From Chloroflexota bacterium (GTDB lineage Bacteria > Chloroflexota > Dormibacteria > CF-121): a DNA stretch of 64,000 bases. The stretch spans positions 2,229 to 66,228 of the forward strand of contig VBEW01000016.1 in assembly GCA_005889225.1 (NCBI GenBank). The letters run 5' to 3'. Below are positions 6,630 to 52,350 of the stretch, one piece after another. Position numbers and translations under genes: made by a program. Position 1 is the first letter of the stretch; the number at the start of each line of letters is the position of its first letter. The notes beneath the pieces were generated by a model. The model ran no database searches, was not told the DNA's origin, and saw only the letters and a list, made by a program, of their open reading frames with translations.

Positions 6630-7808
6630 CTACAGGTGTGGGAACTGCTGCTGGCCGAGGTAGACGAGGTAGTCCGGCACGTTCACCAGGTTGGTCAGGC
6701 TGTAGACGAAATTCCAGAAGGTTGCGCTGACCGGTCCGCCCTGCCAGAGCAGATAGAAGAGGAGCAGCAACGGCAGCATGCCGAGGCGACTGGCAAGGAT
6801 TCGCAGATCGATGGAGAGCCAGGGCGCGATGATCCCGAACCCGTCGAAGGGCGGGATCGGGATGAGGTTGAGCACCAGGGCGGTGAACTGCAAGAACACG
6901 AGGAAGGCGAGGGCGCCCCAGAAGTGGACGTCGCCGAAGGGTGGTTCCCCCTGGAAGGCAAGGAATGGCCAGCCGATCAAAATGGCGAAGACCAGATTCC
7001 CCAACGGGCCACCCGCCGAGGCGAAGCTGCGCCATCGATCGGTTCGGATCGCTCGCTCGTTCAGGTAGACGGCGCCGCCGGGCAGCCCGATCCCGCCGAT
7101 GAGAAGAAAGACGATCGGCAGCGCGATGCTCAAGACGGGATGCGTGTACTTCAGCGGATTGAGCGATAGGTAGCCGGCCGCCGCCACCGACCGGTCTCCG
7201 CCCAGGTAGGCGATGAGGGCATGTCCGAACTCGTGGATGCAAAGCGATGTGATCCAGCCGCCAACCACCAGCAGGACGCTCAGCAGCAGGGTCAGCCCCG
7301 GGGCGATGCCAAACCAGAGACCCAGGCCGCCGATGATCGCGGCGCCGACCGGGATCGCGAACACCGGGCTGACGCGGACCGCGCGGGCGAGCGACGGCAG
7401 CGGTCGACGGCGAGCGTCCTTCGGACCCGACCCTGGAGCGGTGAGGTATTGGCGGATGGCGTAGATCGAGATCCCGGCTGCCTCCAGCCGTTCGGCGGTG
7501 CGCGCGGAGTCCTTATAGAGAAGGGCTAAAAGCACGTGGGCGGGATCAACCTGGTAGTGGCCCATCTGCTCGGCCTCGCGGTGCGCATTGTTGAGGAGGT
7601 ATCGCGTCGCCGTTCCGATCGGGGCCGGCGCGGCCGGCAACATGGGATCGAGCTGCGGTGATTGGCTCAGGGCGCCGATGTTGGCGTTGAGCGCCGTCAG
7701 CGCCCGGTGGCCCGGGTTCTTGGGCAACAGCGCGATCGCTTCCAGCAGGTGGATCGGATCGGCCCGCGATACGCCGCGCATCGTGGCAACGCGCTGCCCC
7801 AGCTCCAC
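6630..7808 (-). CDS. Clp N-terminal repeat domain fused to site-2 protease (peptidase M50) membrane domain
   Basis: Two Clp_N repeats (HLLEAIALL; HVLLALLYKD) followed by TM region with HEFGHAL (HExxH) and LNLIPIPPFDG (LDG) motifs of M50/S2P. Confidence 0.7.
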   Translation of the reverse strand: MELGQRVATMRGVSRADPIHLLEAIALLPKNPGHRALTALNANIGALSQSPQLDPMLPAAPAPIGTATRYLLNNAHREAEQMGHYQVDPAHVLLALLYKDSARTAERLEAAGISIYAIRQYLTAPGSGPKDARRRPLPSLARAVRVSPVFAIPVGAAIIGGLGLWFGIAPGLTLLLSVLLVVGGWITSLCIHEFGHALIAYLGGDRSVAAAGYLSLNPLKYTHPVLSIALPIVFLLIGGIGLPGGAVYLNERAIRTDRWRSFASAGGPLGNLVFAILIGWPFLAFQGEPPFGDVHFWGALAFLVFLQFTALVLNLIPIPPFDGFGIIAPWLSIDLRILASRLGMLPLLLLFYLLWQGGPVSATFWNFVYSLTNLVNVPDYLVYLGQQQFPHL

Positions 7809-7909
7809 AACCTCGCGCGCTGACCCGGTCAGCGGGATCTCATGCGCGATTTGCTTGAGCGTCCAGCCCTCGGTGGCGCCTCCACCCGATTCAGCCGCCC
7901 CCGTTGACG

Positions 7910-8068
7910 TCAGGGCTTGACCGTTCCGATGCGCATCCGGAGGCGACCTTCGATCTGGCCGAGCAGCCAGGCGGCAAACTGCTCATGCGACGGGTGTTGT
8001 TCCTTGACCATTTCCAGCATCTCATCGTGGATGTGGGTCAGCAGCTTCAGGAACTCGCTGTCATCCAT
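7910..8068 (-). CDS. Small hypothetical protein (52 aa, helical)
   Basis: Perfect SD AGGAGGT 6 nt upstream of ATG (MDDSEFLKLL...); non-biased composition. Confidence 0.45.
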   Translation of the reverse strand: MDDSEFLKLLTHIHDEMLEMVKEQHPSHEQFAAWLLGQIEGRLRMRIGTVKP

Positions 8069-8136
8069 TCCCCACCTCCTGGTCGGGCGCATGATCGGAG
8101 CAGCCGGTGGGGAAAATTGTAAACGGCCCCGGGCAA

Positions 8137-8163
8137 CAAAAAAAGCGGCCGGCGGGCCGCTTT
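8137..8163 (-). terminator. Rho-independent terminator (AGCGGCC-GGCG-GGCCGCT followed by T7 on minus strand)
   Basis: 7-bp GC stem, 4-nt loop, A-tract upstream and T-tract on minus strand immediately 3' of the 8182-8400 minus-strand gene. Confidence 0.6.
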
Positions 8164-8181
8164 CCGGTCGTTATATCTCGC

Positions 8182-8400
8182 TCAGACGTCGTGGTGTTCG
8201 ACCTCGGTTGCGTCGGTGGTGTGATGGTGGTGCGTTCCGCCGTACATGCCGCCCGCCACCAGGTTATAGATGACGCCGGCGATGGCCAGCACCAGGAGCA
8301 GGAAGATCAGGGACCCGCCAACCTGGAACGACCAGCCGAGGAGCCACAGGACGACCAGGACGACAACCGCCAACCAGATCAGACTCGTCAAATTGTTCAC
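8182..8400 (-). CDS. Small two-TM membrane protein with His-rich C-terminus (GGTHHHHTTD)
   Basis: Two hydrophobic helices, GGAGGAGG upstream, followed by strong terminator; start codon choice (GTG/TTG) uncertain. Confidence 0.45.
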   Translation of the reverse strand: MNNLTSLIWLAVVVLVVLWLLGWSFQVGGSLIFLLLVLAIAGVIYNLVAGGMYGGTHHHHTTDATEVEHHDV

Positions 8401-8488
8401 CTCCTCCGAAGCCTGATGGCTTCCCCTTCAGGTTATATTAACGATATCATATCTAATGGGTCGACGATGACCAGGAATGGGGTGAGGA

Positions 8489-9535
8489 ATGGCGCCCGCG
8501 GTTGATCTGGTCGAGCCGATCGAATCGGCGCGCGCCGCGGGACTCCGCTACGTCTCGGATCTGAGTCCTGGGATCCGCCGGAAGCGCGCCGGGAAGGGCT
8601 TCATGTATCGCAACAGCGAGGGCCGCACCGTCGATGACCGGGATACGATCCGGCGGATCAAAGGCCTGGCCGTGCCGCCGGCCTGGACCGATGTCTGGAT
8701 CTGCCCCAACCCGCACGGCCATCTGCAAGCGACGGGGCGCGACGCCAGGGGGCGCAAACAGTACCGCTATCACTTGCGCTGGCGCGAGGTTCGCGATGCC
8801 GTCAAGTACGACCGGATGGTGGCCTTTGCCGCGGCCCTGCCAGAGATCCGCGAGCAGACCGACCGCGACCTGGAACGGCCCGGCATGCCGCGAGAGAAGG
8901 TGCTGGCGGCGATTGTCCGGCTGCTCGAGGAGACCCGAATCCGAGTTGGCAATGAGGAGTATCGAAAGGAGAACGGCTCCTTCGGCCTGACAACCCTGCG
9001 AAACCGACATGTTGAAGTGATCGGCTCGGACGTGCACTTTAGCTTTCGGGGCAAGAGCGGCAAGCTGCATCGCGTCGACCTCCAGGACCGGAGGCTGGCG
9101 CGCATCCTCAAGCGATTCCTCGAGATCCCGGGCCAGGAGCTCTTCCAGTTTCTGGACGAAAGCGGAGAGGCCAAGCCCATCGACTCGGCCGATGTCAATG
9201 CCTACCTGCGCGACATCAGCGGCGAGGACTTCACCGCGAAAGACTTCCGCACCTGGGCCGGTACAATCCTCGCCGCCCGATTCCTGTGCGAGACGATCAC
9301 CAGGCCGAACACCCGTGGTGCCAAGAAGCATCTCGTCCGCGCGATCGCGCGGGTGGCCGACGAGCTCGGCAACACCCCGGCCGTGTGCAAAAAAGGCTAC
9401 ATCCATCCCGCGGTCATCGCCGCCTACCTCGCCGGCGGCTTGAAGCCCGTCAACGAGAAAGATGACGTTGATCCCTACCAGCTCTCCGCCGAAGAGCGCA
9501 GCCTGTTGGCCCTGCTCAGCGCCGAGGCGTCGTAA
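8489..9535 (+). CDS. DNA topoisomerase IB (poxvirus/eukaryotic-type, bacterial TopIB)
   Basis: ~348 aa; FRGKSGK, RTWAGT and C-terminal KKGYIHP (catalytic Tyr context) resemble bacterial TopIB such as Deinococcus enzyme. Confidence 0.75.
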   Translation: MAPAVDLVEPIESARAAGLRYVSDLSPGIRRKRAGKGFMYRNSEGRTVDDRDTIRRIKGLAVPPAWTDVWICPNPHGHLQATGRDARGRKQYRYHLRWREVRDAVKYDRMVAFAAALPEIREQTDRDLERPGMPREKVLAAIVRLLEETRIRVGNEEYRKENGSFGLTTLRNRHVEVIGSDVHFSFRGKSGKLHRVDLQDRRLARILKRFLEIPGQELFQFLDESGEAKPIDSADVNAYLRDISGEDFTAKDFRTWAGTILAARFLCETITRPNTRGAKKHLVRAIARVADELGNTPAVCKKGYIHPAVIAAYLAGGLKPVNEKDDVDPYQLSAEERSLLALLSAEAS

Positions 9536-50745: not shown

Positions 50746-50775
50746 TTGACAAGACCGCTGAGTCCGCCCTAAGCT
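50746..50775 (+). promoter_or_regulatory. Candidate sigma-70-type promoter (TTGACA - 18 nt - TAAGCT) for the 50864 gene
   Basis: Consensus -35 hexamer and TAnnnT -10 in a 370-nt intergenic region. Confidence 0.35.
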
Positions 50776-50863
50776 GCCGTTGCCGCCACCGGCTCTTGGG
50801 GAGGCGCAGGCTGGCGGTGCCGCTGCCGTTTACCTAATTTTCGTTGCTGAGGAGCCCGAAACA

Positions 50864-52282
50864 ATGCTGCTTGTGGAAGTCCGCCGCCTGGATATCGCGC
50901 CGTCCGCCGATCAGTTCTGGACGATCGTCTCCCGCGTCAACGGCCCGGAGTTCATGGGCGTTCTATACCGAGCCCGCGAAGCCATTTTCGACAGTGCCGG
51001 AATCGCCTTCACCATCGACCTGCTGAACAAGTTCCTGCAGTTTGACGTGACAAAGAGTTGGTCCGCCGCCGATGAGGGGGAGCTGTTCATGGGGTCGGCG
51101 CCGGTGGTCGGCTGGTTGCGCGTCCGCCGTCCGGGCTCGGCCACCCTGCGTGAGCTCCGATCGGACGACATTCATTTCATGGAGCTCGAGCACGCTGCCA
51201 AGCCGGCGTTCGTGGAAGTCGGTGTCGCCTATCGCGCCGGCACCGAGAAAGTGCGAACGGACTTCCTCAAGCGCATTCGGACCGCCGCCCAGGAGGCGCT
51301 TGGCCAGGAAGTGGGGACGCCGTCGTCCTGGCCGGTGCTCGCCCCCGTGGGCAGCCATAACTTCGATGCCATCCGCAAGTCCCGCCAGGCATCCTACGAA
51401 GCCAGCGCCGAAGAAAACCAGGCGATGGCCGCGTTTACCACCCCGGAGATTCGGGCACTCATCCGCGACCTCGAGCGAGTTGGCTCGCTGACGGTTTCCG
51501 ACCTCCCCAAAGTCCTGGGCGAGGCGCAGGGGACGGCGGTCGCCGGCAGGCTCGGTGAGCTGCGCAACCTTGGCCTGATCCAGTCCGAGTATGTGATCGT
51601 GTGCTCGCGCACCGGAAATGCCGTGCTCCGCACTGACGATCCGAACAAGCTGCAGAAGATGGCACCCGATTGGATGAAGTGCGCCTGTGGCCGGCCGCTG
51701 AATGAAGAGCGGGTTGACCAGGTGATCGTGCCGACCGACCGCGCCACCGCGCTCAACGACAAGGGTCGCTGGATGACGACGCTGGCGACGGCGATCCTCC
51801 CCAAGCTCGGCATTAGCCGTGAGCAGGTCATCATCGACGCCAGTCCCCAGGGCACGGACATCGTGCTCGACCTCAGCGGTGACCTCGTGCTGGTGGTCCT
51901 GAAAGATCACGAGTTCAACCTGGCCGATGCCTACGCCTTCAACGCCAAGGTCTCACGCATCAAGGCCGCAGAAGGCGTGATCGTCAGCAATGAGGGGCTC
52001 TCCGGCGATGCCAAGAAGCTGGTCCAGGATGAGCTCGGTCCGCAACGCGCCCGGATCACGGATCCGTTCCGGATCACCTTCGTGGAGGGCGTCCAGGCGT
52101 TTGAGCACGACCTCGGCCGGGTCGTGGAACGGCGGCGCCGCCAGTATTTCCTGCGGGCGCTCGGCGACCTGGCGACCATTCAGGGCCTCAACATCGGTCA
52201 GCTCGCGCTGGCGAAGGTCGAAGCGGGCGGCCGCGTCGGCAAAGAAGTCGTGGCGCCGGAGGCCGTTCCCGCCGAGGCGTAG
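50864..52282 (+). CDS. Multi-domain protein: unknown N-domain, wHTH-like segment, Cys-cluster zinc ribbon, C-terminal Mrr-like PD-(D/E)xK nuclease domain
   Basis: C-terminal GTDIVLDLSGDLVLVVLKDHEFNLADAYAFNAKVSRIKAAEGVIVSNEGLSGDAKKL aligns with Mrr_cat restriction-endonuclease core; CSRTGNAV...KCACGRP; start at MLLVEV with GAGGAG SD. Confidence 0.65.
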   Translation: MLLVEVRRLDIAPSADQFWTIVSRVNGPEFMGVLYRAREAIFDSAGIAFTIDLLNKFLQFDVTKSWSAADEGELFMGSAPVVGWLRVRRPGSATLRELRSDDIHFMELEHAAKPAFVEVGVAYRAGTEKVRTDFLKRIRTAAQEALGQEVGTPSSWPVLAPVGSHNFDAIRKSRQASYEASAEENQAMAAFTTPEIRALIRDLERVGSLTVSDLPKVLGEAQGTAVAGRLGELRNLGLIQSEYVIVCSRTGNAVLRTDDPNKLQKMAPDWMKCACGRPLNEERVDQVIVPTDRATALNDKGRWMTTLATAILPKLGISREQVIIDASPQGTDIVLDLSGDLVLVVLKDHEFNLADAYAFNAKVSRIKAAEGVIVSNEGLSGDAKKLVQDELGPQRARITDPFRITFVEGVQAFEHDLGRVVERRRRQYFLRALGDLATIQGLNIGQLALAKVEAGGRVGKEVVAPEAVPAEA

Positions 52283-52306: not shown

Positions 52307-52350
52307 ATCTCCCTCCCCCGTCGGCGGGGGAGGGTCGGGGTGGGGGGTTC
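52307..52350 (+). repeat. G-rich palindromic repeat copy 3 (TCCCTCCCCCG-TCGG-CGGGGGAGGG + TCGGGGTGGGGGG)
   Basis: 25 nt after the stop of the 50864-52282 gene; same element as copies 1 and 2; G5-A-G3-TC-G4-T-G6 fits a G-quadruplex pattern. Confidence 0.65.

Follow-up and report, generated by a model that had tools for sequence, protein, structure and literature searches.

Whether a stand-alone protein that carries a nuclease fold still cuts DNA, or has been kept for some other purpose, is the question raised by a gene in a 64,000-nt window (the whole stretch of DNA analysed) of a Chloroflexota bacterium. The original prediction had read its product as a single-gene nuclease, typical of nucleic-acid-targeting defence or repair proteins. 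The 472-aa ORF is a real, well-conserved bacterial gene, whose features are listed in Table 1. All 21 aligned orthologues open with MLLVEVRR or MLHVEVRR, and these shared first residues support translation from the ATG at 50864. As had been predicted, the gene stands alone among unrelated metabolic genes, with an amidase on one side and a Mo-oxidoreductase on the other; a CHAP protein gene is also among the neighbours in the window, and comparison of 70+ family loci revealed no conserved neighbour. Its close orthologues, referred to here as the window clade, come from Limnocylindria-like Chloroflexota and comprise 46 clusters with 76–95% identity.

Table 1. Features of the gene, its flanks and its protein domains (positions in the window).
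Feature	Position	Strand	Remarks
Coding sequence	50864..52282	+	472 aa plus stop
-35 hexamer TTGACA	50746..50751	+	GTTTGACAA invariant in the window and L001-L004; flanking intergenic DNA diverged
-10 hexamer TAAGCT	50770..50775	+	18 nt after -35; CCTAAGCTG in 5/5 upstream regions
Leader, about 80 nt	50776..50863	+	direct sequence reading
Shine-Dalgarno site GAGGAG	50849-50854	+	9 nt before ATG; region conserved across orthologous loci
N-terminal alpha/beta domain, aa 1-150, unassigned fold	50864..51313	+	pLDDT >90 except residues 62-67 and 94-108
Winged helix-turn-helix (wHTH), ArsR/MarR-like, aa 182-257	51407..51634	+	
Three-cysteine knuckle C247...C273-x-C275-G-R...E282	51602..51709	+	joins wHTH wing to nuclease fold
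PD-(D/E)xK (restriction-endonuclease-like) fold, Can2/VC1899-type, aa 283-408	51710..52087	+	
Degenerate active-site strands G330-T-D332 ... V345-L-K347-D348	51851..51907	+	family consensus E-x-D ... E-L-K-D
C-terminal helical pair, aa 410-457, RRRRQYFLRALGDLATIQGLNIGQLALAKVEAGG	52091..52234	+	helices 410-437 and 444-457 in model
GC-rich perfect hairpin, 10-bp stem, 4-nt loop	52311..52334	+	29 nt past stop codon

The domain architecture was examined in an AF2 model of the protein based on a 122-sequence alignment (pLDDT 87, pTM 0.85). With close orthologues only, the pLDDT of the N-domain was 67, and the larger alignment raised its quality. The architecture originally proposed, an unknown N-domain followed by a wHTH, a Cys cluster and a restriction-endonuclease-like fold, essentially held, with the exception of two labels, zinc ribbon and Mrr. 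The N-terminal ~170 aa had been described as lacking an obvious family, and indeed no match of the N-domain to PDB folds or Pfam was found; its extent is nearer to 150 aa, and these residues were modelled as a confident alpha/beta fold in the order beta-alpha-alpha-alpha-beta-beta-beta-alpha. Within it, residues ~89–112 form a clade-invariant segment of low model confidence. The segment that had looked like a winged helix consists of three helices and a beta-hairpin wing, confirming a wHTH of the ArsR/MarR type. The zinc ribbon, which takes four ligands on two CxxC knuckles, was not borne out, as C247, C273 and C275 are the sole cysteines of the window protein. C247, C275 and E282 are invariant in the 122 sequences and a single sequence lacks C273; no fourth ligand, whether Cys or His, is conserved in the family, and the segment resembles the Rad50 zinc hook only weakly, at the level of the motif. 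Position 333 was rejected as a further ligand: 75 of 112 relatives have Cys there, but the clade has I, L or V and other relatives have A, V or L, and we take C333 to be a buried core residue. The following domain has the alpha-beta-beta-beta-alpha-beta core of the PD-(D/E)xK superfamily, and the nearly clade-invariant helical pair at the C-terminus is likely an oligomerisation element.

The residues of the active site were then compared across the family, whose canonical signature is E282...E330-x-D332...E345-x-K347-D348. This signature is intact in 102 of 122 members, and outside the window clade each position is close to invariant (E330 in 106, D332 in 111, E345 in 108, K347 in 107 and D348 in 110 of 112 sequences). 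The window clade reads EGDVKD at the same six positions, with G330 and V345 each in 9 of 10 sequences and the (D/E) position of the D...(D/E)-x-K triad being V or T in all 10. In the window itself, both codons were read directly (ggc, 51851–51853, for G330; gtc, 51896–51898, for V345). The predicted assignment of D332 and K347 to the catalytic pattern was therefore upheld, whereas the core is incomplete, the ExK glutamate being V345 and the ExD glutamate G330. Since E330->G and E345->V/T occur in every close orthologue, the outcome that had been named in advance as counting against the prediction, loss of the acidic residues in conserved homologues, is the one observed. On this alignment, the catalytic core of the window protein is degenerate, and so are those of all close orthologues. 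The active site is intact in the sister sequence P0053, which aligns over its full length, indicating that the loss of E330 and E345 is derived and took place on the stem of the window lineage. Cleavage activity has most likely been lost in the window protein. D332, K347, D348 and E282 remain in place, and the clade has more invariant acidic residues near these strands (D336, D340, E350 and D355, the last being N or H in most relatives). Because Cfr10I, NgoMIV and some other enzymes of the PD-(D/E)xK type take their second carboxylate from a neighbouring helix, a residual or altered catalysis is conceivable. The single weak Pfam match in the nuclease region was to NA-iREase1 ("NACHT-associated inactive REase"; E = 0.021, 15.3 bits vs a threshold of 27).

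The gene is chromosomal and vertically inherited and, despite the replaced residues, under strong purifying selection. Its GC and GC3 are native to the genome, and it remains syntenic with the amidase and the Mo-oxidoreductase among the clade loci, in a shared block of six or more genes. Between genomes the protein is 77–83% identical, compared with 54–73% for the neighbouring genes, and the overall dN/dS was about 0.14 (0.13–0.16). Per-domain values are rough, as dS was 0.7–1.4 and near saturation, and on this scale the nuclease fold was the least constrained structured domain (0.20–0.30), while the N-domain, Cys knuckle and C-terminal helices fell within 0.03–0.13 (0.08–0.12, 0.03–0.11 and 0.08–0.13, respectively), the knuckle being lowest in the protein. 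Conservation across the family as a whole runs the opposite way; the N-domain, nearly invariant inside the clade, is the most variable part across the whole family.

The wider family is large and without a Pfam, NCBIfam or PADLOC model. At E <= 1e-3 it has 700 representatives (about 700 clusters at 50% identity), spread over Acidobacteriota, Actinomycetota including Streptomyces, Proteobacteria, Methylomirabilota, Chloroflexota and one Asgard archaeon; a word-indexed profile search brought in no further distant ones. For the window protein, Pfam, NCBIfam, PADLOC and PHROGs yielded sub-threshold matches at best, with none at E <= 10 in PADLOC-DB v2, which includes Shedu and mREase_IV. Likewise, none of 36 diverse family members scored above threshold in Pfam or PADLOC (best sub-threshold PADLOC match, 0.0016). 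All-vs-all ORF clustering of 18 genome loci and 59 metagenome loci revealed no conserved partner gene, and a literature search on the Streptomyces homologue SVEN_2491 / vnz_12205 retrieved nothing. In three lineages the family gene has a fixed place within or next to the gyrB-gyrA operon, and some catalytically intact distant relatives adjoin integrases, transposases, type I R-M, reverse transcriptases, a TIR effector, or Mrr, HNH or AAA_15 genes.

These data bear directly on the proposal that the protein is an active stand-alone nuclease, directed to DNA by its wHTH and Cys knuckle and cleaving with its PD-(D/E)xK domain, in anti-phage or anti-plasmid defence or in DNA repair. The fold itself is confirmed, part of the catalytic set is kept with more acidic residues nearby, and the distant relatives with an intact site, some beside integrase, transposase, type I R-M or TIR effector genes, may fit such a role. 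For the window protein we consider it unlikely. Both glutamates are replaced throughout the close orthologues, PADLOC gave no match, and the domain that would do the cutting is the one under least constraint. Moreover, defence genes are typically patchy and fast-evolving, whereas this gene keeps its syntenic place among metabolic genes, matches its genome in composition and changes more slowly than the genes around it, and no relatives were found on 72,556 plasmids, 50,697 phage genomes or IMG/VR viral contigs. Of the nuclease and defence reading first put forward, the nuclease fold survives; no evidence for a defence-island gene was obtained.

The affinity of the nuclease domain was next considered against known systems. 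Among the closest are the CRISPR ancillary nucleases Can2, Card1, Cdn1 and VC1899, and the domain resembles the DUF1887-type module of Can2/Card1/VC1899 more than it does Mrr, so that the predicted PD-(D/E)xK core stands as a fold but not in its Mrr affinity. Can2 has an E-ExD-K site in which E341 and D343 ligate Mn2+ ions, and both the E341A and the E276A/D278A variants are inactive; an extra four-helix, two-strand motif lies ahead of its core, as described in the Can2 paper. The same extra motif precedes the core here, and the family layout E...ExD...K parallels E-ExD-K, with E330 equivalent to Can2 E341, which holds a catalytic Mn2+ and whose alanine variant is dead. The links in sequence are weak (PADLOC PD_DExK(1XMX) in 3 of 36 members; 8bao at E = 1.2), and identity is just 10–13%. 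Unlike Can2 and Card1, the protein lacks a CARF (Rossmann) sensor, the N-domain giving no CARF match, and neither the window gene nor the family loci are associated with type III CRISPR-Cas: no CRISPR-like array was found in the window and no recurrent cas neighbour in 70+ family loci. The Cys3 knuckle and C-terminal helices are additions here, and the E-ExD-...-K motif is broken in the window protein (G330, V345). In contrast to the type IV enzyme Mrr (Mrr_N wHTH plus Mrr_cat), neither Mrr_cat (PF04471) nor Mrr_N ever reached the Pfam gathering score; Mrr_cat had no match in the window protein and only sub-threshold ones in 2 of 36 members (E = 0.012). The extra 150-aa N-domain, Cys3 knuckle and C-terminal helical pair, and the lack of an intact catalytic site in the window copy, also set it apart from Mrr.

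The top Foldseek matches were to NucS/EndoMS and AF1548-like archaeal PD-(D/E)xK proteins (2vld, 2.8e-4; 1y88, 5.9e-4). These are chromosomal nucleases that recognise DNA structure and combine a DNA-binding domain at the N-terminus with a RecB-like core at the C-terminus. However, the TM-scores were low (0.17–0.41) with no sequence similarity, and these proteins have neither a wHTH nor a Cys knuckle and are about 200 aa long vs 472 aa. The inactive restriction-endonuclease folds of Pfam NA-iREase1 are comparable in having a PD-(D/E)xK fold minus its catalytic carboxylates and a binding or scaffold role, but here there is no NACHT/STAND context, and the inactive form is a derived clade within an otherwise active-looking family.

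Taken together, we favor, with a probability of roughly 55%, the view that the window protein derives from a nuclease family and was exapted to bind DNA without cleaving it, because both metal-binding glutamates were replaced and yet strong purifying selection was kept. Its origin lies in the family of stand-alone proteins whose canonical members carry a full two-metal nuclease site (E...ExD...ExK-D), and it consists of five parts, namely an alpha/beta N-domain, an ArsR/MarR-type winged helix, a putative three-cysteine metal knuckle, a Can2/VC1899-type fold and the C-terminal helical pair. On the stem of the Limnocylindria-like lineage, E330 changed to G and E345 to V while the protein remained under selection. 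For the present-day protein we infer DNA binding, dimerisation and a sensor role of the N-domain. The winged helix and what remains of the nuclease cleft would contact DNA, in what is probably a dimer held together by the C-terminal helices, and the very conserved N-domain would bind a ligand or partner that controls DNA binding. The role would then be regulatory or chromosome-associated rather than in restriction or defence. More tentatively, the family as a whole might be an undescribed group of stand-alone sensor-coupled nucleases acting on chromosomal DNA, as their place at the gyrB-gyrA operon in three lineages would suggest, with a new non-CARF sensor at the N-terminus, a Can2-like effector made up of wHTH and PD-(D/E)xK domains, and the Cys3 knuckle. 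A dead copy would then have been exapted in Limnocylindria as a conserved, possibly essential chromosomal DNA-binding factor, its near-invariant N-domain reading a signal. If the favored view of the window protein is true, the locus would be a clean natural case of a nuclease becoming a non-cleaving DNA-binding protein within one bacterial class, with active, ancestor-like relatives still at hand for comparison. The family would also carry the effector module of a CRISPR ancillary nuclease without CARF or CRISPR, which bears on the origin of Can2-type effectors and on other signals controlling them. In practical terms the finding is of modest weight, and restriction-endonuclease folds that have become inactive are already well known.

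The upstream region bears on a further possibility, that the protein is a one-component transcription factor whose wHTH regulates either the divergent 51-aa ORF and amidase operon or its own promoter, with a metabolite acting on the N-domain and the dead nuclease as scaffold. The predicted promoter of the gene itself was well supported, as both hexamers (TTGACA-18-TAAGCT) were kept in all four orthologous loci while the nearby intergenic DNA had diverged. Only 3 of the 6 bases in the -10 hexamer agree with TATAAT, so a consensus scan missed it; the leader showed no family match in Rfam. The arrangement with the divergent mini-ORF and amidase, present in 5 of 5 clade loci, the ArsR/MarR-like wHTH and the lost catalytic residues all agree with a transcription factor. 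Nevertheless, we regard it as distinctly improbable: within the shared intergenic region, non-coding conservation is confined to the promoter hexamers and Shine-Dalgarno site, with no palindromic operator evident, the adjacency is not specific because the whole block of genes is syntenic, and canonical relatives have no such neighbour. That the gene is a functionless, decaying relic of a selfish or mobile nuclease, as the lost glutamates and a visibly disrupted relative beside a transposase (L020) might suggest, is very improbable and largely refuted by the selection data, namely the intact frame in 40+ orthologue clusters under the low dN/dS given above, a protein more conserved than the neighbouring enzymes, a conserved promoter and Shine-Dalgarno site, and orthologues too divergent in dS to be near-identical recent copies.

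The palindromic repeat noted after the gene was confirmed as a perfect 10-bp stem. It was rejected as a canonical intrinsic terminator, because it is not followed by a T-run and does not occur at the orthologous loci. A second copy of this hairpin lies at 1493–1516, and the two-copy repeat is specific to the source genome.

Searches of Pfam, NCBIfam, PADLOC and PHROGs with the window protein returned only sub-threshold matches, among them an ArsR-like HTH (residues ~173-241) and the Pfam entry "NACHT-associated inactive REase 1" (residues 340-390, E = 0.021). A first search recovered 46 clusters of proteins about 470 aa long, with identities of 76% or more; one of them bore the name Candidatus Limnocylindrales (Chloroflexota). 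An exhaustive profile search showed the family to be much larger. With clusters formed at 50% identity, it gathered 700 representatives at E <= 1e-3, of which 521 also passed E <= 1e-10; the majority are 440-490 aa long and match residues ~165-430. None of 36 diverse members exceeded any Pfam or PADLOC threshold, and the family is therefore unmodelled; three of the 36 showed a sub-threshold match to the PADLOC model "PD_DExK, same family as the one fused to CARF (1XMX)". A conserved Streptomyces member, SVEN_2491 (WP_145953703), is annotated as hypothetical, and no paper mentioning it was found in a literature search.

The AlphaFold model, built from a 122-sequence alignment, was confident (pLDDT 87.1, pTM 0.85), and its domains are listed in the table. 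The family profile matched Can2 (8bao) weakly (E = 1.2), and alignments of ~200 residues are accounted for by the Can2 paper. On these structural and weak sequence links, the winged helix and the PD-(D/E)xK fold of the original prediction, whose structural intuition was good overall, were called correctly; the proposed kinship with Mrr did not hold, the nearest structural kin being the Can2-type module. Neither the superfamily nor the fusion to a wHTH is new, and REase folds without activity are a known idea; what is new is a fairly large unmodelled family, found outside any CRISPR context, whose members join this effector module to a Cys3 knuckle and an N-domain that is not of the CARF type. 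Within the N-domain, residues ~89-112, a low-pLDDT loop that is length-variable elsewhere in the family, were invariant in the window clade, making them by inference a candidate clade-specific partner-binding/interaction or modification motif.

The Cys segment, previously taken for a zinc ribbon, contains the only three Cys residues of the protein (C247, C273 and C275). Among 122 relatives, C247 and C275 were invariant and C273 was missing from one only, alongside G276 and an invariant E282; CxxC replaces CxC in some of them, and the family alignment contained no conserved fourth Cys or His. A Cys3 knuckle is the most fitting description of the segment, which joins the wHTH wing to the beginning of the nuclease fold. 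A short motif-level likeness to the Rad50 zinc hook was also detected (E = 0.012).

Features of the gene, its product, its surroundings and the relatives' loci. Numbers without prefix are window nucleotides; residue counts refer to 112 non-clade and 10 window-clade sequences, and domain limits to the AlphaFold model.
Feature	Coordinates	Strand	Remarks
-35 TTGACA	50746-50751	+	18-nt spacer to -10
-10 TAAGCT	50770-50775	+	3/6 match to TATAAT
ORF	50864-52282	+	ATG to stop, 472 aa
Alpha/beta N-domain	residues 1-150
Clade-invariant segment	residues ~89-112; 51128-51199		RRPGSATLRELRSDDIHFMELEH
Linker helix	residues 164-173
Winged helix	residues 182-257
Alpha-beta-beta-beta-alpha-beta core	residues 283-408
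Two C-terminal helices	residues 410-437, 444-457
Position 282	residue 282		non-clade E invariant; clade E retained
Position 330	residue 330; 51851-51853		non-clade E 106/112; clade G 9/10, S 1/10; window codon ggc
Position 332	residue 332		non-clade D 111/112; clade D retained
Position 345	residue 345; 51896-51898		non-clade E 108/112; clade V 9/10, T 1/10; window codon gtc
Position 347	residue 347		non-clade K 107/112; clade K retained
Position 348	residue 348		non-clade D 110/112; clade D retained
Mini-ORF, 51-53 aa	50490-50645	-	MTERDRLAAAARTAGLRLTAADLEALGPAWKRYQALVEELRSAL...
Membrane ORF, 63 aa	52406-52597	+	two helices
Mo-oxidoreductase ORF, 479 aa	52590-54029	+	Oxidored_molyb/Mo-co_dimer, hydrophobic N-terminal region
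Hairpin	52311-52334		CCCTCCCCCG-TCGG-CGGGGGAGGG, perfect 10-bp stem
Hairpin, second copy	1493-1516
gyrB-X-gyrA	L015:185-7039; L066:56-5878		one lineage
gyrB-X-gyrA	L056:5547-12180		second lineage
gyrA-X	L062:18-4054		third lineage
Archaeal member	L009:6616-8945		3' of TIR effector gene
Split family gene	L020:6419-8733		ORFs 7686-8486 and 8440-8733

Family-wide, the central strands read ...GGD-E-x-D-C... and ...F-E-L-K-D..., which together with E282 give the signature E...ExD...ExK-D. The same layout, E-ExD-...-K, is found in Can2 (Glu304, Glu341, Asp343 and Lys369), where Glu341 and Asp343 coordinate two Mn2+ ions and neither E341A nor E276A/D278A retains catalytic activity (PMC7969007, PMC10783487). 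The window protein has lost catalytic acidic residues of this signature (E330 to G, E345 to V), which, by the test proposed with the original prediction, speaks against a nuclease in this protein though not in its distant relatives. By analogy with Can2, the change to G330 should by itself be enough to prevent two-metal catalysis, and V345 also takes away the canonical (D/E) of (D/E)xK. In a neighbour-joining tree, the window clade was nested in the family on a long stem (0.65) as sister to P0053, a sequence with an intact signature that aligned over its full length (29% identity, E = 1e-53), and the loss is therefore derived.

We therefore favour, with a probability of about 0.55, the view that the window protein is an exapted, non-cleaving derivative. 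It is unlikely that the protein is instead an active nuclease whose site has been rebuilt; the invariant acidic residues close by (D336, D340, E350 and D355) speak for this, and some PD-(D/E)xK enzymes take a carboxylate from a helix. In the exapted protein, DNA would be bound by the winged helix and by what remains of the nuclease cleft, with the near-invariant R197 and R256 of the wing as candidate contacts; the C-terminal helices may mediate dimerisation, as in the dimeric relatives Can2 and NucS, and the N-domain may bind a ligand or partner controlling DNA binding. A narrower form of this non-cleaving reading, in which the protein specifically controls the divergently transcribed amidase operon, seems rather improbable; no operator was found.

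The position of the gene was fixed within the clade, in the order thioesterase/hydrolase, LysM-CHAP, divergent amidase with a mini-ORF, the gene itself, a membrane ORF of 61-63 aa and a Mo-oxidoreductase. Its GC content was 0.652 (window, 0.660), and its GC3, 0.83, resembled that of the neighbours. The window protein shared 77-83% identity with its counterparts in three orthologous loci, compared with 54-73% for its syntenic neighbours. Taken together, synteny, composition and conservation identify the gene as vertically inherited and as serving a conserved role in the cell. Also new is a clade of this family whose protein, although it appears to have lost catalysis, is better conserved than the neighbouring ones. 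Nei-Gojobori dN/dS was 0.13-0.16 overall, 0.08-0.12 for the N-domain, 0.03-0.11 for the Cys segment, 0.08-0.13 for the C-terminal helices and 0.20-0.30 for the nuclease fold, ratios that are rough because dS was 0.7-1.4. Family-wide, in contrast, the nuclease core was best conserved and the N-domain most variable; such a reversal is what a functional shift away from catalysis would produce. These selection data leave the idea of a decaying relic hardly credible.

Every orthologous locus contains the mini-ORF, which runs into the 5' end of the amidase gene downstream of it and had no Pfam match; it could encode a small amidase partner subunit, GatC- or AtzG-like. On the 3' side, the membrane ORF overlaps the Mo-oxidoreductase ORF by 8 nt and is translationally coupled to it, and this pair was kept in three orthologous loci (L001, L003 and L004) and not in a fourth (L002).

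The predicted ORF was borne out by the N-terminus MLLVEVRR or MLHVEVRR in 21 of 21 aligned orthologues and by a Shine-Dalgarno sequence, GAGGAG, 9 nt 5' of its ATG; this evidence disfavoured a longer, mechanically listed version starting at a TTG at 50780. The proposed sigma-70-like promoter was missed by a consensus scan because of its poor -10 match. Despite this, GTTTGACAA and CCTAAGCTG were kept across the window and four orthologous loci in the upstream alignment, where the remaining intergenic DNA had diverged, and this phylogenetic footprint of the hexamers makes a real promoter likely. No Rfam family matched the leader of ~80 nt.

All-versus-all ORF clustering of 18 genome and 59 metagenome loci revealed no conserved partner gene of the relatives. 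Their neighbours included mobile or defence-type genes (integrases, transposases, type I R-M, reverse transcriptases, HNH, Mrr, AAA_15 and a CAP12/Pycsar TIR protein) and housekeeping genes (urocanase, CTP synthase, PolA, UvrB and PhoD), and no relatives were found on 72,556 plasmids, 50,697 phage genomes or IMG/VR viral contigs. Taken as a whole, the family therefore resembles an accessory nuclease that resides on chromosomes and is exchanged horizontally, with a role that may be in defence, in repair or linked to topology; for the window copy, the nuclease and defence label is unsupported. A placement that recurs in some relatives, and is new, is in or beside the gyrase operon, where catalytically intact members occurred in three distinct lineages, with family proteins 30-52% and GyrA 60-72% identical to each other. 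Judging by this placement, the family may have to do with replication or DNA topology rather than with defence. Of the neighbourhoods inspected individually, only that of the single archaeal member (a Promethearchaeota/Asgard MAG), which lies directly 3' of a CAP12/Pycsar-type TIR effector gene, is clearly defence-like. In an alphaproteobacterial MAG (L020), the family gene is split immediately 3' of a DDE transposase and is probably a pseudogene.

The G-rich palindromic repeat noted after the gene was confirmed as a hairpin, nested in a longer structure (-39.7 kcal/mol, z = -2.4). Each of its two copies lies a short way after a stop codon, and the GC-rich element has the form (C/T)CCTCCCCCG-N4-CGGGGGAGGG, then a GGG(T/C)..GGTGGGGG tail. 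It has no T-run on its 3' side and is absent from the orthologous loci; it therefore resembles a REP-like or terminator repeat specific to this genome and separate from the protein.
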